Position numbers and translations under genes: made by a program | The notes under the pieces: model-generated | Told to the model about the DNA's origin: nothing | Databases searched by the model: none | What the model saw: only the letters and a program-made list of their open reading frames with translations | Assembly (NCBI GenBank): GCA_964596735.1 | Contig: CAZQVF010000005.1 | Span: 13,328 to 77,327 of the forward strand | Direction of reading: 5' to 3' | Origin: an uncultured Gammaproteobacteria bacterium | Lineage (GTDB): Bacteria; Patescibacteriota; Patescibacteriia; UBA2591; UBA6264 | DNA: 64,000 nt | In this document: piece by piece, positions 16,998 through 27,071 of the stretch | Layout of the letters: each line of letters starts with the position of its first letter | Position numbering within the stretch: position 1 is the stretch's first letter

Positions 16998-17231
16998 TTA
17001 TTTAATATTTAATTTTTCCTTAAACTTTGGGACATCAAATCCCATAATCATTTCCCCGTCGATTTCTGTTACGGGTACGGCCATCTGCCCTGTTTTTTTA
17101 ATAAAATCATCAACCAGATCCTGATGTTGACTAAGATCAACCTCTTCAAACTCGATTTTATTCTCATTTAAAAAATCTTTGACATGGTGGCAATAAAGAC
17201 ATGATGGTGATGTATAAACAATTATTTTCAT
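16998..17231 (-). CDS. Glutaredoxin/NrdH-like thiol-disulfide oxidoreductase
   Basis: 77 aa, CLYC active site in a thioredoxin-fold context (KIIVYTSPSCLYC...VPVTEIDG). Confidence 0.6.
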   Translation of the reverse strand: MKIIVYTSPSCLYCHHVKDFLNENKIEFEEVDLSQHQDLVDDFIKKTGQMAVPVTEIDGEMIMGFDVPKFKEKLNIK

Positions 17232-17266
17232 ATATTCTTAGTTAATTGGTTATTTACTGTTAGTAT

Positions 17267-17422
17267 AAGAACCTGCTTCGCAGAACCTTGAAATTAAATT
17301 CTATTATATATAAATTAAGGTAATTTAATTATAAGAACCTGCTTCGCAGAACCTACCTGCCGGCAGGCAGGCCTTGAAATTAAATTCTATTGTATAAATA
17401 ATAATGTATTTTAATTATAAAG
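17267..17422 (+). repeat. Two tandem orphan copies of the promoter cassette (17267-17332 and 17333-17422); the second carries a 12-bp GC palindrome insertion CCTGCCGGCAGG
   Basis: Copy 1 reproduces the aspS upstream region through ...TAAGGTAATTTAATTATAAG, including the equivalent of aspS codons 1-4. Copy 2 carries the GC-rich palindrome at 17356-17367. No + strand ORF follows; both point into the 3' end of the minus-strand RT gene. Confidence 0.55.
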
Positions 17423-17464
17423 ATTAGAAAAAGCTCGTCAAGTTATCTTATTTTGTAATAATAT

Positions 17465-18511
17465 TTATTCTACTAAACCTACTTTCTTTCTAAATTTATA
17501 CGTATTTCCGTGAATCAATAGTCCTTGATAAGAAATAACTGTCTGTCGTTTTGGATAATTCTTTAATCTTCTAATTATCTTTCGCTTTGTGGTTGTTCGA
17601 ATCTGTCGATAGCATGGAAAATGTATCCAGCCCAAAAAATCTAAACCCGAAGCATAAGTTCTAATACAAACCTTGTGTTGATGAAGTGTCAATTTAAGTT
17701 CTTTTTGTAAAAATTCAGTGATTCTTAACAATAAACCATTGAGATACTCTTTATTGTCCGATAAAATAACGAAATCGTCGCCATATCTAATATAATATTT
17801 CACTCGCAATTCCTGTTTTATATACATATCAAATTCGTGCATATAAACATTAACGAAAAGTTGGGAAGTGAGGTTGCCAAGGGGCAGACCTATCCCCAAA
17901 CGGCTGGAATAAAAACTAAAAACTACCCTTTCAATCAACCGAATAATTTGAGAATCGTTAATGTGTCTCTTTAATATTTTAATAAGGATTTGCTGATCAA
18001 TGTTAGCAAAAAATTTCTGAATATCGCATTTTAGAATATAACAAGTTTGAGAATTATTTTTTGATACCTTCTGGGCAAAATATCTGAATCTGTTCAAAGC
18101 GCGATGCACTCCCTTGTTTTCTCTACACGAATATACATCATAAATAAACTTTCTATCAAAATAAGGACACAGCTCCTTATAAATGAGATGATGTAATAAC
18201 CGATCACGCACCGTAGCTTTGTGAATATTTCTCGGCTTGGGGTCAGAAATATTAAAAGCCGAATATGGTCCGTGAATATAAGTAAAATTAACCAGAGACT
18301 TATAAAGATCTATTAAATTATCGGCCAGCTTTATTTGAAAAATCATCACATCTTTTTTATGTCTTTTACCACACAAAAAACGCTCCCAAGTCGCTAAGAG
18401 ATTTTCTATCTTAATAATATCAATATATTTAACTTTAAACATATGACTACAATATCTGCGCGAGTACCATTGGTGCTTGTTAGAACAAAAAGGGCTTATC
18501 AAATTTGGCAC
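17465..18511 (-). CDS. Diversity-generating retroelement (DGR) reverse transcriptase
   Basis: RT motifs including LPLGNLTSQLFVNVYM ([ILV]GxxxSQ, DGR-specific) and YIRYGDDFVIL (YxDD). N-terminal ENLL...GKR.K...PY.AF.I.DPKPR.I..A...DRLLHHLI pattern typical of DGR RTs. The real start may be Met24 (18442). TR lies ~330 bp upstream. Confidence 0.85.
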   Translation of the reverse strand: MPNLISPFCSNKHQWYSRRYCSHMFKVKYIDIIKIENLLATWERFLCGKRHKKDVMIFQIKLADNLIDLYKSLVNFTYIHGPYSAFNISDPKPRNIHKATVRDRLLHHLIYKELCPYFDRKFIYDVYSCRENKGVHRALNRFRYFAQKVSKNNSQTCYILKCDIQKFFANIDQQILIKILKRHINDSQIIRLIERVVFSFYSSRLGIGLPLGNLTSQLFVNVYMHEFDMYIKQELRVKYYIRYGDDFVILSDNKEYLNGLLLRITEFLQKELKLTLHQHKVCIRTYASGLDFLGWIHFPCYRQIRTTTKRKIIRRLKNYPKRQTVISYQGLLIHGNTYKFRKKVGLVE

Positions 18512-18820
18512 AAAAATTTAGTCAATCTTAATCGACTTGATCGCTATACTATTGGTGCTAAAATCGATGAATATTTTCTATCTTTATTGGAATTAATTTT
18601 TAAGGCCTGTTTTGCTTACGATAAATTTGAAAAACTCTCAATGGTATCACAAGCGATTGGTAAAAACGATTTATTAAAATTCTTTTTACAGATTGGTTGG
18701 GAACAAAAAACCATTAACCATAAAAATTATGGTCTTCTAATACTTTTACTTGATGAAGTTGGTCGAATGCTGGGTGGCTGGAAAAAAAATATACAAGAAA
18801 AAACTCCCGCTAGTAAGTAG
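18443..18820 (+). CDS. Avd-like accessory variability determinant (four-helix-bundle, 23S rRNA IVS protein family), on the opposite strand
   Basis: 125 aa, predicted all-helical. C-terminal LDEVGRMLGGW resembles the conserved Avd/four-helix-bundle motif, and AYQIWHK resembles the N-terminal helix. It sits between TR and RT, on the opposite strand. Confidence 0.5.
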   Translation: MTTISARVPLVLVRTKRAYQIWHKNLVNLNRLDRYTIGAKIDEYFLSLLELIFKACFAYDKFEKLSMVSQAIGKNDLLKFFLQIGWEQKTINHKNYGLLILLLDEVGRMLGGWKKNIQEKTPASK

Positions 18821-18840
18821 CAGGAGAAAAAATTAAATAA

Positions 18841-18960
18841 GTCACAGAAGCAGAGCAGGCAGTCGTTATCATCCCAAGCGTTCTCAAAGTTGCCGAGGTT
18901 GAAATTAAAGTCATCATCCGAGTTGCGGTTGACATTCGGCACGCGGTAGTTGCCGTCAGA
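18841..18960 (-). repeat. DGR template repeat (TR), 120 bp, Asn(AAY)-codon rich
   Basis: 120-nt alignment to 19299-19418 with 16 mismatches. All 15 internal mismatches are A in the TR coding (minus) strand; one T/C mismatch lies at the extreme 3' (IMH-like GC-rich) end. Read in the VR frame it gives SDGNYRVPNVNRNSDDDFNFNLGNFENAWDDNDCLLCFCD. Confidence 0.85.
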
Positions 18961-19189
18961 CAATGTACAGCCCGCCACCTTTTTCACTAAGGGTAACGCC
19001 AGTCGCCCTCTGTATTTTATTCTGAGCCAAAATGCTCAATAGCACGCTGCACCGACTGATTTAATTTTTTCATAAAAGGTTGCACTCATTTACTAAGCAT
19101 GCCCAGTAAATTCCTGGCAAACTCCCTTTACGAGAATTCGATGATATAAAGCCATGGCCACATATCCAATCTATTATCCAAAAATATTA

Positions 19190-19238
19190 TACAGAAAAAA
19201 TACATAAAAGAAAAGGGTCCTTACATTGGTAAGAACCC
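19190..19238 (-). terminator. Rho-independent terminator downstream of the DGR target gene
   Basis: Minus strand: GGGTTCTTACC-AATG-TAAGGACCC hairpin (one mismatch) followed by TTTTCTTTTATGTATTTTTT. Confidence 0.5.
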
Positions 19239-19289
19239 AAAGGGTCAAAAAATCCAAAGAACAGGACTAAGAAACCAAGTGCCTAAGCA

Positions 19290-19997
19290 CTAATCGCAGT
19301 CGCAGAAGCAGAGCAGGCAGTCGCTATCATCCCAAGCGTCCTCAAAGGGGCCGAGGAAGAAAATAAAGTCACCAACCGAGTAGCGGTCGACAGACGGCAC
19401 GCGGTAGCTGCCGTCAGAATCGATCCAGAGAGCCTCTTTCTCATCAAACGAGACAGACCAACGGCTCTTTGGCAACTTGTTTTTGGCAAGTTCATAGACC
19501 AGTGAAGCGCCTTGAGCGCCGGCTAAAACAGCTTTCTGAGAATACAGGAAATTTAAACAGTCTTCCGAAGTCACAGTTTCTGTGATATTAAAAACCTTTA
19601 CCTTGAACTTTCTGCCAGGCACGAGCTTTGTTGTCGCTTTGTTAAAGTGCTTATCAGTGATGTCGGAATTGTAGTAATTAAATTCCGAGCCATGCGCTGC
19701 TGCAAAGTCAGTCAAGCGCGTAGCATGGTCGTAACCCTTAGGCACAACAATGTTAAACGCATTGGCCAATTTGAAGCGCGGGTCAGGCATAAACGGTGAA
19801 AGAGCTTGCTGACGTTGTTTCTGTGTCAGATTTAAAAAACATTCATATTCTGGCAAACTCATTTGCCCTTTCTTGATCTTCTGATTGCAATCCATATGCA
19901 GACCAGCCAATTTGGCCGCTTCTGCGCCGATAGATGTCTTATCCATCATTTTCTCCTTTGATACCAAGAGTTTAATAATTGACCCCATGCCAATCAT
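19290..19997 (-). CDS. DGR variable (target) protein, 235 aa, with the variable repeat encoding its last ~40 residues
   Basis: C-terminus ...SDGSYRVPSVDRYSVGDFIFFLGPFEDAWDDSDCLLCFCDCD is the diversified counterpart of the TR-encoded peptide. No signal peptide is evident. Confidence 0.75.
   Translation of the reverse strand: MIGMGSIIKLLVSKEKMMDKTSIGAEAAKLAGLHMDCNQKIKKGQMSLPEYECFLNLTQKQRQQALSPFMPDPRFKLANAFNIVVPKGYDHATRLTDFAAAHGSEFNYYNSDITDKHFNKATTKLVPGRKFKVKVFNITETVTSEDCLNFLYSQKAVLAGAQGASLVYELAKNKLPKSRWSVSFDEKEALWIDSDGSYRVPSVDRYSVGDFIFFLGPFEDAWDDSDCLLCFCDCD
19299..19418 (-). repeat. DGR variable repeat (VR) at the 3' end of the target gene
   Basis: See TR. A GC-rich invariant 3' segment (CGACTGCCTGCTCTGCTTCTG) forms an IMH-like end. 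A small hairpin GTGC-TTAG-GCAC abuts the stop codon. Confidence 0.85.
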
Positions 19998-20092
19998 TTT
20001 CTCAGTATTGATAATATTATGTCATATTTTAGCCTTTTTGTCAACACTCCTATTCCAAAAGACTTAAAATTTATATTAATCTAAAATAAAAA

Positions 20093-20200
20093 CACCGCCG
20101 AGGAGAATCGAACTCCTGAGACGGATTTGCCTTTAGCGGAAAACCTGGCGTCCTACAATGCTTAATAAATTAAAATGGCCCCGAGGAGAATTGAGTGAAA
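20093..20200 (-). other. Two tRNA 3'-end-like fragments (T-arm plus acceptor 3' strand), possible integration scars
   Basis: Minus strand: GGAGTTCGATTCTCCTCGGCGGTG (20093-20116) and CAATTCTCCTCGGGGCCA (~20177-20194). No complementary 5' acceptor strand or D/anticodon arms could be built. Confidence 0.3.
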
Positions 20201-20201
20201 A

Positions 20202-20891
20202 TTATTTTAATCCACTTTGTAATTTTAACGCGTCAATCCATCCTTTAATTCGAAAAGCTATCTTACGACCATGTACACGTAAATCAAGTGTGCCATATGG
20301 CAAAGAATTGATTGGACGTTTTCTGTTGCTCGCTTTGCTTATTTGTTTAAAAATGCGAAAACGACTTTTAGGAATATTAGTTACTCTAGCCCAAAAATTA
20401 ATGGCAGATTGCTCGCTAATATTAGCATGTATTCTAACACATACTTTTAATTTCTCTTCAGGGACTTTAATAATTTCTCGTAAAAAGCGAAGAAACAACG
20501 CAATCATATAAGGATCAGCATTAACAAAATCAACTACATACCCTTTGTTTTTTTGAGCCTCAATTTTATATCCCTCTGCCCAATAAAGAGCATTTGCAAC
20601 TAATAATAACTCATATTTTGACAACGAATGAATTTCATTAAAAGTCTCCTTCTTTATTCTCTGATTTTCAATCCAAATAGCACGTGTCCGTTGCCGATTG
20701 TTTTCAAATAACCCATGTTCTCGAGCAATTCTCGTTTTTTTTTCTAAAAGCTTTTTTGCTGACTTTGTTAGTTTTAAGTCTCTAAACCAAACGCTAAGCG
20801 AGCCCTTGGAAACACTTAAAGTACGAGCTATTTCATTGTAACTTTTACCCTTTAACCGCAACCTGAGCGCTTTTTGATATTGTGGATGCAT
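20202..20891 (-). CDS. HTH-domain protein of unknown function (transposase-type HTH; possible homing-endonuclease-like C-terminal region)
   Basis: KGKSYNEIARTLSVSKGSLSVWFRD is a transposase/sigma-region-4-like HTH; NALYWAEGYK is vaguely LAGLIDADG-like. The ORF track starts at 20954 inside tRNA-Glu; I prefer Met22 (20891). Confidence 0.35.
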   Translation of the reverse strand: MHPQYQKALRLRLKGKSYNEIARTLSVSKGSLSVWFRDLKLTKSAKKLLEKKTRIAREHGLFENNRQRTRAIWIENQRIKKETFNEIHSLSKYELLLVANALYWAEGYKIEAQKNKGYVVDFVNADPYMIALFLRFLREIIKVPEEKLKVCVRIHANISEQSAINFWARVTNIPKSRFRIFKQISKASNRKRPINSLPYGTLDLRVHGRKIAFRIKGWIDALKLQSGLK

Positions 20892-20909
20892 AATAATTAA
20901 ATATATAAG

Positions 20910-20982
20910 TAGCGCCAAGGGGAATCGAACCCCTGTTACATGGTTGAAAACCATGTGTCCTGACCACTAGACGATGGCGCCA
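20910..20982 (-). tRNA. tRNA-Glu (anticodon TTC)
   Basis: Minus strand GGCGCCATCGTCTAGTGGTCAGGACACATGGTTTTCAACCATGTAACAGGGGTTCGATTCCCCTTGGCGCTA. D-arm TCGTCTAG...GGAC as in bacterial tRNA-Glu, anticodon loop TTTTCAA, canonical TTCGATT T-loop, G1-U72 wobble. Confidence 0.8.
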
Positions 20983-21053
20983 TTATTATTTAGCGCAATC
21001 TTAGCAAAATTAAACGAATTTGTCAAAGAATTAATTTATGTTAAAATAATCTT

Positions 21054-22112
21054 ATGCTTATCTTAGGTATTGAAACATCTTGTGATGAAACAGCGGCGGC
21101 TGTTTTAGAATATAAGCCCTTAAAAAAAGAAGGTCAGTTTAAAGTTATTTCCAATGTTATTTTTTCACAAATCTCAATTCATCGTCAATACGGAGGTATT
21201 ATTCCTGAGGTAGCCGCCAGGGCTCATATTGAAAATATTTTACCAGTGATTAAAAAATCTCTTAAAAATATAGATTATAGAAAAATCGATTTAATTGCTG
21301 TTACTCAAGGGCCGGGGCTAATCACATCGTTATTAGTTGGTTTAGAAACTGCTAAATCTTTATCCTATTCTTGGAAAAAACCATTAATGGGAATTAATCA
21401 TTTACAAGGTCATTTGGCGGCTAATTTTATTGAACATGAAACAAAGAATGTTTTTCCGGCAATTAGCTTAATTGTCTCTGGTGGACATACTGAACTTGGC
21501 TTAATGAGAAAGTCTGGTCATTATAAAAAAATTGGACAAACTAGGGATGATGCCGCTGGAGAATGTTTTGATAAAATCGCTAAATTATTAAAAATCGGCT
21601 ATCCTGGAGGTCCAGTTATCTCTAAAATGGCTGAAAAAATAAACAACAAATCAAATAATATCTGCTTTCCTCGCCCCATGATCAAAACAAATGATTTTGA
21701 TTTTAGTTTCTCGGGACTAAAAACAGCTGTACTTTATTTTGTTAAAAAGAATAGAAATAAACTAGAAAAGAAAAAATTTATTCAGAACATTTGTGCTGAA
21801 TCTCAACAAGCAATTATTGACGTTTTAATTCATAAAACAATTAAAGCAAGTAAAAAATATAAAGCCAAAGCTATTTTTCTAAGTGGTGGAGTGGCCGCCA
21901 ACCAAGAACTAAGAGAACAATTGAAGCTCCATGTTTGTAGATTGCCAAATAGTGTAAAATTCTTTGTTCCATCAAGAAATCTTTGCACTGATAATGCGGT
22001 AATGATTGCTGCAGCCGCCGCCCTCAAATTCAAAAACTTAATACCAATTCAAAGGAAGAAATTAAAAAATAATTGGCAAAAAATAAAAGTAGATCCTAAC
22101 TTAGAAACATGA
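21054..22112 (+). CDS. tsaD: tRNA N6-adenosine threonylcarbamoyltransferase (Kae1/TsaD)
   Basis: MLILGIETSCDETAAAV...GGVAAN motifs. Confidence 0.9.
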   Translation: MLILGIETSCDETAAAVLEYKPLKKEGQFKVISNVIFSQISIHRQYGGIIPEVAARAHIENILPVIKKSLKNIDYRKIDLIAVTQGPGLITSLLVGLETAKSLSYSWKKPLMGINHLQGHLAANFIEHETKNVFPAISLIVSGGHTELGLMRKSGHYKKIGQTRDDAAGECFDKIAKLLKIGYPGGPVISKMAEKINNKSNNICFPRPMIKTNDFDFSFSGLKTAVLYFVKKNRNKLEKKKFIQNICAESQQAIIDVLIHKTIKASKKYKAKAIFLSGGVAANQELREQLKLHVCRLPNSVKFFVPSRNLCTDNAVMIAAAAALKFKNLIPIQRKKLKNNWQKIKVDPNLET

Positions 22113-25358: not shown

Positions 25359-27071
25359 TTATTCAGCCACACGGAAAACTTCTTCTACAGTAGTAAGTCC
25401 ATCTAAAACTTTTAAGATTCCGTCTTGAACCATACCAACCATGCCCTGGCCTTTAACTAATTCTTTCATTTTATACTCGGAAAGGTCACCTTCTAGAACT
25501 GCTTTTTCAATCTCTGGATCAATTATTAAAACCTCATAAATTCCAACTCGTCCTTTATAGCCCAGGCCCTGGCATTTTTCACAACCTTCTCCTTTATAAA
25601 ATTTAAGTTTATTCAAGTCAATTTTAATGCCTGATTTCTCTGGAATTTCAGATAAAATCTTTTTTACTCGAACTAACTTTTCAGGCTCCAAGGTTGTTTC
25701 TTTTTTACATTCTTTGCAAATTCTTCTTCCTAAACGCTGGCCAATAACTGCATTAAGTGCTGGTGCCAAAAGATAAGGCTTTGCTCCCATAGAAAGAAAT
25801 CTAGGCAAAGCCCCTACTGCATCATTTGTATGAAGAGTAGAAACTACTAAATGACCAGTCAGGGCAGCTTGAATAGCGATATCAGCTGTTTCCAAATCTC
25901 TAATTTCTCCAACCATAACCACGTCTGGATCCTGACGAAGAATTGAACGAAGACCTTTGGCAAAGGTATATTCTTTTGATTTATCAACCTGACTCTGATT
26001 AACTCCTTTTAAATGATACTCTATTGGATCTTCTAGGGTAATAATTTTTGTTTCTGGATCATTAAGCTTATTTAAGATAGCATATAAGGTGGTTGTTTTT
26101 CCTGAACCTGTTGGACCTGTGGTGATAATCATCCCATTAGGTCTTTCTATTTGTGCTTTTAGTTTTTCTTCAACATCTTTACGAAAGCCAAGATCTTCAA
26201 AGCTTAACCCAGCTACTGATGCACGAAGTAGTCTCATAACCACACTTTCACCATAAGCGGTCGGTAATGTAGAAACCCGAACATCTGTTTTTTCTTTATT
26301 TAAATAAATAGTAAATCGTCCGTCTTGTGGCCGATCTGTTACATTCATTTTAAGACTAGATAATAATTTAAGCCTTGAAATGACTTTAGGCCAAAACTTC
26401 TTGTCTATCTCAGCCACTTCAATTAAAACTCCATCTATTCTAAATCTGACTTTAATGGCTGTTTCTTCTGCTTCAATATGAATATCAGAAGCTCCTGATT
26501 GGACAGAACTGGCCATAATTAAGGTGACCATATCAGAAATTTTAACATTCTGAACCTCCTGATTTAAATCTTTAAATGTTTTTACTTTATTTTTAAAATG
26601 TTCAAAGTCCTCGGGAGATATCTCAACTCCTTTGACAATTTTGCTAACCTTAGGCAAGGCAGCATAACGCTGATGAGCAAGTTTAAAACTATGTTCGGAA
26701 ATTAAATGAAGCTCTGTTTTTACATTCCAGGCTCCTTCAATTTGCTCTCTAAGATCTGCTAAACCAGGATTTTCAACCTGGGTTGAGGCAAGTTTAACTT
26801 TTTCTTCGGTTCGATAAAAACAAACTACCTGGTGTTTTAAGGCATCTTCTTCAGAAATCAACGTTAAAGCTTCAGAAGAAATAGGAAAATCAGCTAAATT
26901 AATATAAGGAATACCTATCTGACGAGCTTGCTCAGTCGCTTTTTCTTCTAAGTCTTTAATATTAATATTTATTAACTTCTGATTCAACTTTTTTTGTTCT
27001 TCTTCTGAAGCAATGTTGGGTTTTTTAGAAGATTGACCACCTTGTCCTAATAAATCCTTTAAATCTAACAT
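25359..27071 (-). CDS. Type IV pilus/type II secretion assembly ATPase (PilB/GspE family)
   Basis: Walker A GPTGSGKTT, Asp and His boxes, C-terminal tetracysteine motif (CKECKK...CEKCQGLGYKGR). Confidence 0.8.
   Translation of the reverse strand: MLDLKDLLGQGGQSSKKPNIASEEEQKKLNQKLININIKDLEEKATEQARQIGIPYINLADFPISSEALTLISEEDALKHQVVCFYRTEEKVKLASTQVENPGLADLREQIEGAWNVKTELHLISEHSFKLAHQRYAALPKVSKIVKGVEISPEDFEHFKNKVKTFKDLNQEVQNVKISDMVTLIMASSVQSGASDIHIEAEETAIKVRFRIDGVLIEVAEIDKKFWPKVISRLKLLSSLKMNVTDRPQDGRFTIYLNKEKTDVRVSTLPTAYGESVVMRLLRASVAGLSFEDLGFRKDVEEKLKAQIERPNGMIITTGPTGSGKTTTLYAILNKLNDPETKIITLEDPIEYHLKGVNQSQVDKSKEYTFAKGLRSILRQDPDVVMVGEIRDLETADIAIQAALTGHLVVSTLHTNDAVGALPRFLSMGAKPYLLAPALNAVIGQRLGRRICKECKKETTLEPEKLVRVKKILSEIPEKSGIKIDLNKLKFYKGEGCEKCQGLGYKGRVGIYEVLIIDPEIEKAVLEGDLSEYKMKELVKGQGMVGMVQDGILKVLDGLTTVEEVFRVAE

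Follow-up and report, generated by a model that had tools for sequence, protein, structure and literature searches.

We analysed a 64,000-nucleotide (nt) stretch of DNA, hereafter the window (contig CAZQVF010000005.1 of assembly GCA_964596735.1, from an uncultured bacterium placed in the Patescibacteriota by its GTDB lineage), in which a first-pass annotation had proposed a reverse-strand gene at 19290..19997 as the target of a diversity-generating retroelement (DGR). We found that this gene probably encodes a single-domain hypervariable protein that binds a ligand, diversified by an adjacent DGR that is currently active.

Repeat pair and ongoing diversification

The target assignment was borne out by the DGR components around the gene: a repeat pair, a reverse transcriptase (RT), Avd and a matched pair of initiation of mutagenic homing sequences (IMH and IMH*). 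The variable repeat (VR; 19298..19418, reverse strand) and the template repeat (TR; 18840..18960, reverse strand) form a 121-nt pair with 88% identity on the coding strand. The TR contains 28 adenines, and 14 of the 15 mismatches fall on TR adenines. The remaining one, T/C, lies 5 nt from the 3' end and is the single base (C/T at 19302/18844) by which the IMH differs from IMH* in the TR. The IMH itself (GACTGCCTGCTCTGCTTCTGCGAC; 19299..19322, reverse strand) is GC-rich, forms the 3' end of the VR and encodes an invariant strand, DCLLCFCD. Twelve codons are changed between the repeats, every one of them AAY or GAY in the TR, which reads SDGNYRVPNVNRNSDDDFNFNLGNFENAWDDNDCLLCFCD in the VR frame. 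The 24-nt 3' end (IMH) and the VR-5' pattern occur exactly twice each in the window, where shuffled sequences are expected to give 0 occurrences.

The VR encodes residues 194-233 of 235, in agreement with the annotation, which had placed it in the C-terminal ~40 residues. Its G/D/Y/S-rich composition arises because fixed positions need adenine-free codons while the variable ones are AAY-derived NNY codons. No second target was found in the 64-kb window, where the IMH and VR had no additional copies and the family no other member, and an exact IMH scan of a metagenome collection returned nothing.

The same locus was found in other assemblies. The 90%-identity cluster of the target contains four proteins from different assemblies, identical over residues 1-194; the variants carry 2, 12 and 11 differences from the window protein, all at A-containing TR codons. 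At the nucleotide level, one of these loci (L035, JGI 3300009311, a 315-kb contig) showed 16 differences over 6,708 nt compared, all in the VR and 15 of them at TR adenines, with 0 in the TR and 0 elsewhere. A second (L036, JGI 3300009314) showed 15 VR differences over 2,926 nt, all 15 at TR adenines, with 0 in the TR and 1 elsewhere. When the two comparisons were pooled, 31 of 32 differences lay in the VR, 30 of those 31 at TR adenines, and none in the TR. Because other assemblies of the locus differ almost only in the VR, at TR adenines, with the TR unchanged, the DGR at the target locus is currently active.

The RT gene (17465..18442, reverse strand; 325 amino acids (aa) from MFKV, maximal ORF (open reading frame) to 18511) matched RVT_1 with an E-value of 2.3e-21. 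Its translation contains a YGDD motif and the sequence LGNLTSQ, which we take to be the [ILV]GxxxSQ motif characteristic of DGR RTs. In 15 other cassettes the RTs share 57-73% identity with this one. The accessory gene avd (18443..18820, forward strand; 125 aa) matched PF22296 bAvd (E 2.7e-12; 47.5 bits against a cut-off of 40) and, under the curated cut-off, NCBIfam DivGenRetAVD NF033474 (E 4.5e-14). The TR, RT and target are all on the other strand. The order target, TR, inverted avd, RT was present in 17 of 34 related loci, and 14 of these 17 cassettes (Patescibacteria loci) were confirmed to have A-biased TR/VR mismatches; three of the 14 carry two targets. The same TR-(avd)-RT order with inverted avd was defined as architecture B3 by Wu et al. 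2018 (PMC5758913).

Target gene

The ORF list gave a maximal target ORF of 235 aa. An ORF of this length exists, as annotated, but the real product is probably 218-219 aa long (19290..19946/19949) with its start at M18 (19946), because close homologues are 218 aa long and begin with MD(K/N)TSIG, and a Shine-Dalgarno sequence, AAGGAG, precedes M17/M18. An in-frame stop lies upstream of the ORF at 20024 and the target profile spans full-length relatives from end to end, so the gene is intact. This refutes the possibility, raised in the annotation, that it is a fragment of a longer disrupted gene. Nor did the description of the protein as much shorter than typical C-type lectin (CLec) targets hold, as the median length of 265 retrieved family proteins is 222 aa and AvpA has 256 aa (PMC5006420). 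The target consists of an N-terminal helical region of ~50 aa followed by a 166-aa single-domain core (residues 70-235).

A sigma-70-like promoter match (20016..20044, reverse strand; TTGACA-17-CATAAT with an extended TG, 11/12, a consensus match only) sits upstream of the gene. The terminator that had been annotated downstream was recovered as an intrinsic-terminator-like element with a U-run (19205..19238, reverse strand): its 10-bp hairpin (19238..19215; free energy, dG, -14.5 kcal/mol) begins 51 nt past the stop codon and is followed by UUUUCUUUUAU. The target gene has a GC content of 46% (43% for the non-VR part), compared with 33% for the window and 32% for the RT and avd of the same cassette. 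Outside its VR, the target was also GC-richer than the flanks at 23 of 28 related loci, with a median excess of 8 points.

Predicted fold and variable surface

AlphaFold2 modelled the full-length protein with a mean predicted local distance difference test (pLDDT) score of 91.2 from a 109-sequence alignment, with three N-terminal helices at lower confidence and the core above 94. The core alone (166 aa, 148 sequences) reached a pLDDT of 98.0 and a predicted template modelling score (pTM) of 0.92. Its elements follow the order strand, helix, strand, helix, helix, strand, strand, strand, strand, and the VR makes up the last three β-strands and their loops.

When the core model was compared with the PDB using Foldseek, ~40 of the best 50 matches were C-type lectin-like domains (CTLDs), all sub-threshold; these included NKp80 (E 0.12-0.2, probability ~0.5), NKR-P1, LOX-1, Mincle, LLT1, langerin, CD23, tetranectin and SP-D. 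Weak CTLD matches were also obtained for the full-length model and in a viral library. Structures of formylglycine-generating enzyme (FGE), Mtd, TvpA and AvpA were absent among the best 50 matches listed for both models. We infer from the models that the core adopts a divergent, compact CLec-like fold outside the FGE subclass, with the CTLD as the nearest known fold. The annotation had suggested a C-type-lectin/FGE-like fold. CLec-like remains the best available description, but the FGE half of the proposal was not supported, as no FGE match was found by sequence (109 members) or by structure (best 50 listed).

Among 261 aligned family members, positions 197, 202, 204, 206, 212, 214, 217, 220, 223 and 226 have an entropy of at least 3.2 bits. 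Interspersed with these hypervariable positions are the strongly conserved residues V200, P201, V203, S207, F211, F213, L215, F218, W222, L228, L229 and F231. Along the VR strands, hypervariable positions take turns (i, i+2) with conserved hydrophobic ones, which suggests that one face of the sheet, together with the loops, would be the variable binding surface while the other face packs into the core. The variable positions are accordingly predicted to be surface-exposed, and the pattern speaks against the refuting case named in the annotation, VR residues buried in the hydrophobic core.

Protein family

A word-indexed search retrieved 147 relatives. No Pfam domain was present in any of them, and those with a named source came from Patescibacteria. 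A profile search of 1.84 billion cluster representatives gave 1,310 matches at E ≤ 1e-3, of which 998 remained at E ≤ 1e-10; nearly all were 165-250 aa long. This sets the family size at no less than 1,310 clusters at 50% identity. The 32 loci in species-representative genomes were from Patescibacteria-type metagenome-assembled genomes, except for one bin labelled Bdellovibrionales. Judged by the sequences recovered, the family is confined to Patescibacteria.

No Pfam match at E ≤ 1 was found for the target or for any of 109 members, FGE-sulfatase (PF03781), Lectin_C and DUF1566 included. Searches of NCBIfam, PHROGs and PDB sequences gave no meaningful match for the family, and the family profile returned nothing from the PDB sequences at E ≤ 10. 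We set aside the single weak match, LIC_12337 (E 0.011), which scored 15 bits where the cut-off is 270. Across 35 loci, no neighbours of the family recurred other than DGR parts.

Two relatives are larger, and in them the family domain, including a VR-like segment and CLLCFCE/CFLCFCE, is internal (residues ~130-318), so the VR is not always C-terminal in the family. P0155 (792 aa) has three repeats of ~150 aa after the domain and gave only weak, sub-threshold Pfam matches. In P0166 (649 aa), which had no Pfam match, the domain precedes one or two similar units, after which the sequence is unrelated.

Export signals

The annotation had called the protein free of a signal peptide or transmembrane segment and apparently cytoplasmic. 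The first statement was confirmed: the highest 19-residue Kyte-Doolittle window of the target is 0.73, and on inspection the sequence contained no transmembrane segment, signal-peptide h-region, basic n-region with h-region, twin-arginine (RR) motif or lipobox. The second can be kept only in the sense that there is no Sec/Tat signal, as 6 of 265 relatives do have N-terminal hydrophobic segments, in place of the helical region, while the other 259 have none. A cytoplasmic location would be a fair default for the target.

The six exceptions are of two kinds. P0189, P0223, P0188 and P0227 begin with a basic n-region and then an h-region and look exported, with signal- or lipoprotein-peptide-like N-termini; a near-lipobox is present in P0223 as well. 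P0221 and P0250 have an uncharged N-terminus and a transmembrane segment followed by RK or RKKGK; by the positive-inside rule, these basic residues would hold the domain in the cytoplasm.

Mechanism and alternative explanations

In the mechanism we propose, the TR would be transcribed and the RT, with Avd, would make cDNA from it, misincorporating opposite template adenines. The cDNA would then replace the VR, with the replaced segment ending at the GC-rich IMH, and ~14 codons (AAY/GAY in the TR) would be re-randomised. Adenine-free codons would hold the scaffold fixed (V200, P201, V203, S207, F211, F213, L215, F218, W222 and CLLCFCD). In the protein, the VR would provide the last three strands of a compact 166-aa α/β domain, with one face variable and the other in the core. 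The target would be made without a Sec/Tat signal as a probably soluble binding module, and would act within the cell or else once it had been exported or assembled through a route not evident from the sequence. Its ligand would be a changing partner, for instance a component of a host cell or of a phage.

Several observations weigh against this reading. No Foldseek match in the PDB reached E ≤ 1e-3. The best had an E-value of 0.12, with template modelling (TM) scores of 0.35-0.44 (target-normalised) over ~120 columns and a root-mean-square deviation (rmsd) of 6.5-7 Å, and the predicted lectin assignment is drawn from an enrichment of weak matches and from topology. The four relatives with signal-peptide-like N-termini suggest that the domain can evidently work outside the cell too. 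Finally, a target homologue without RT or Avd within 6 kb was found at ~15 of 34 loci (~40%; L001, L002, L009, L010, L012, L015, L016, L019, L020, L023, L026, L029-L031 and L034), so that DGR adjacency is not obligatory for the family. At these orphan loci the third base of hypervariable codons was C or T in 84% of cases, against 92% in DGR-linked copies. This retention of NNY codons indicates that orphan copies have been diversified, possibly in trans, and suggests either trans diversification or recently lost cassettes. Several orphan loci keep the IMH and a post-VR GCTTAGGC hairpin. A possible remote-target pair, L024/L032, proved to be the same sequence assembled twice and was uninformative.

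Where the protein acts is the point on which alternatives divide. It could be a surface or secreted adhesin, delivered by a non-classical route or as part of an exported assembly, which attaches the episymbiotic cell of the candidate phyla radiation (CPR) to its host. We consider this a serious candidate that falls somewhat short of even chances. Such a role is the one usually proposed for CPR DGR targets, the CTLDs that come nearest in fold are extracellular, the four nearly invariant cysteines could form disulfides, and the phage protein Mtd is leaderless yet acts outside the cell. P0189, P0223, P0188 and P0227 (4 of 265 relatives) have exchanged the N-terminal helices for signal- or lipoprotein-like segments, and attachment roles are favoured in the literature (PMC8867640, PMC10221324). 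Against an adhesin speak the 259 of 265 relatives with no N-terminal hydrophobic segment, the 35 loci in which only DGR parts recur and no secretion or pilus gene is conserved alongside, Cys147, which shows no clean covariation with the tail cysteines, and P0221 and P0250, whose basic residues after the transmembrane segment would place the domain in the cytoplasm. The same absence of export signals, in the target and in ~98% of the family, favours a cytoplasmic hypervariable sensor of a fast-changing intracellular ligand (a phage protein or a host-derived molecule) with no fused effector, by analogy with the DGR-diversified sensors that act inside the cells of cyanobacteria and multicellular bacteria. 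Roux et al. left this possibility open for CPR clade-2 targets (PMC8144416), intracellular DGR targets have precedent (PMC10907252), and the variable N-terminal helical region could serve as a partner-docking module. However, neither the target nor its conserved neighbours contain an effector, NTPase or signalling domain, some relatives look exported, and no match was found in PADLOC-type contexts, though the PADLOC library itself was not searched. We give a sensor a similar standing, plausible and a little under an even chance. It is more doubtful that the whole family is truly cytoplasmic and works as a stand-alone hypervariable receptor, with diversification in cis and perhaps also in trans at the ~40% of loci that lack an adjacent RT.

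The cysteines raise a further question. The annotation had described a Cys-rich variable tail, but the Cys-rich part is the invariant, IMH-encoded last strand: CLLCFCD lies inside the repeat and the closing CD* outside, the CLLCFC codons are adenine-free, and in the core model the tail is the last β-strand. Together with C147, this tail could be a functional metal-binding or disulfide motif and not a by-product of constraints on DGR DNA. C147 is present in 214 of 261 relatives, C227 in 177 of 253, C230 in 221 of 253 and C232 in 196 of 249, and all four occur together in 114 sequences. We regard such a motif as unlikely, given that the stretch is the IMH, its codons are adenine-free as every fixed VR position requires, and a whole subfamily has R for C147 yet keeps the tail. 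The tail DNA, TGCCTSCTSTGCTTCTGCGAC, uses GC-rich codons (TGC, CTC/CTG, TTC) in genomes of 31-58% GC, and these synonymous choices are kept at loci of AT-rich genomes whose proteins are only 50-60% identical, which argues for a constraint at the DNA level besides that on the protein. In Mtd, TvpA and AvpA the IMH also encodes an invariant β5 strand (PMC5006420). A disulfide between C147 and the tail, equivalent to the canonical CTLD α1-β5 bridge, was considered and rejected, as the presence/absence patterns showed no clean covariation. We retain a single-domain, DGR-diversified binding protein as the preferred explanation of the gene.

Other features of the locus

Directly after the VR, and overlapping the stop codon, is a hairpin with a 4-nt loop (AGTGC-TTAG-GCACT; 19278..19291, reverse strand). 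The motif GYGC-TTAG-GCAC was found again after the VR in related loci, and the element matches the hairpin/cruciform known downstream of the IMH in other DGRs (PMC5758913). A different and stronger hairpin with a T-run (18804..18826, reverse strand; 9 bp, dG -13.3 kcal/mol) lies 14 nt past the TR. Every related cassette examined had a hairpin of 9-13 bp with a T-run 14-17 nt after the TR (at ~3576-3610 in L004 and ~3973-4000 in L005; also in L006, L008 and L014). This post-TR hairpin may act as a terminator in both directions, serving the convergent avd as well, or else as a structural element of the DGR RNA.

The start codons of avd and RT are back to back (18443 and 18442), leaving no intergenic room for divergent promoters. 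At least 15 related cassettes keep the inverted avd layout, and their gaps measure ~20-70 nt. Downstream of the RT, at 17255-17420, two 34-nt units with a short GC hairpin (CTGCGAAGCAG) and a T-run are interleaved with a 49-nt AT-rich direct repeat and resemble tandem terminator-like units.

Between the target promoter and an ORF of ~229 aa, two fragments like tRNA 3' halves (T-arm and acceptor) were seen in 20084-20194, of which 20098-20116 resembles the T-arm region of tRNA-Glu. The ~229-aa ORF (within 20202-20981, reverse strand) has an N-terminal helix-turn-helix (HTH) with weak Sigma70_r4, HTH_23, transposase and invertase-like matches, and adjoins an intact tRNA-Glu (20909-20981). This tRNA was the only call by ARAGORN and Rfam (Rfam over 17000-21200). 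An integration scar or a disrupted tRNA gene may explain the fragments. A 570-aa ORF (25359-27071, reverse strand), ~5 kb away from the target, looks by eye like a GspE/PilB-type secretion or pilus ATPase, a call based on Walker motifs and a C-terminal Cys cluster. No link between this ORF and the target was found, and it did not recur next to family members.

Discussion

The target is a typical CPR DGR target, a member of a large, already noticed and uncharacterised class. Leaderless, domain-less CPR targets have been reported previously (Roux 2021, PMC8144416; Wu 2018, PMC5758913). The DGRs that Roux et al. grouped as CPR clade 2 and those that Wu et al. described from CPR come from the same host group, Patescibacteria, and their targets are, like the present one, small and devoid of a transmembrane segment, signal peptide or recognisable domain; there is no qualitative difference between those DGRs and the locus described here. 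Roux et al. 2021 noted that CPR clade-2 targets are typically without transmembrane segments or other domains, and that their genuine non-membrane-bound status "remains to be established" (PMC8144416). The target differs from the majority class of that survey, Sec/Tat-exported or membrane-anchored proteins, in having no such N-terminal signal. Short single-domain proteins also make up "about half" of one bacterial target category (PMC5758913). For the CPR "UVR" classes, Wu et al. left the fold open between CLec, Ig (immunoglobulin) or other (PMC5758913); the confident model obtained here would place the target family with the lectin-like folds.

A close parallel is AvpA from Nanoarchaeota, a 256-aa single CLec domain whose crystal structure was reported by Handa et al. 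2016 (PMC5006420). Like the target, it is a single-domain DGR protein of ~250 aa from an ultra-small organism with a fold undetectable by sequence, its IMH encodes the invariant β5, and it has ~12 variable AAY codons (PMC5006420). The two differ in that no sequence similarity was detected (family profile against the PDB at E ≤ 10) and that the VR of AvpA is internal, with 27 residues and 46 more after it, whereas that of the target has 40 residues and 2 after it. Mtd of Bordetella phage BPP-1 and TvpA of Treponema share with the target a C-terminal VR of ~40 residues, predicted in the target to span β3-β5, variable AAY codons amid a fixed scaffold, an IMH that encodes the last strand and a hairpin 3' of the IMH. 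Unlike the target family, in which no FGE-sulfatase Pfam match was found (109 members), they fall in the CLec folds' FGE subclass. The target lacks a lipoprotein signal as well as any trimerisation or tail-fibre domain, and is much smaller than Mtd (381 aa). The best structural neighbours are animal CTLDs (NKp80, NKR-P1, LOX-1, Mincle, langerin and CD23), aligned over ~120 columns, the whole length of a CTLD. They differ in their TM scores (0.35-0.44), rmsd (6.5-7 Å) and identity (8-16%) and in the lack of a Lectin_C match in the family, and the target core has ~40 extra residues that would have to be inserts. The likeness would be one of shared topology, with no evidence for homology.

In itself the locus repeats what large surveys have reported. 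New here are the demonstration of diversification at the locus, the size of the family and its restriction to Patescibacteria, as judged from database matches, and a very confident predicted model. Many CPR bacteria have kept a DGR even though these ultra-small episymbionts have very few genes. If the family were indeed a cytoplasmic receptor, this would settle the question raised by Roux et al. of whether CPR bacteria have DGR targets that are not membrane-bound. Given the confident model and the large family, the target is well suited to expression, structure determination and ligand fishing. The binding partner and site of action of CPR hypervariable proteins are an acknowledged question, for which this locus provides a clean and demonstrably active example.

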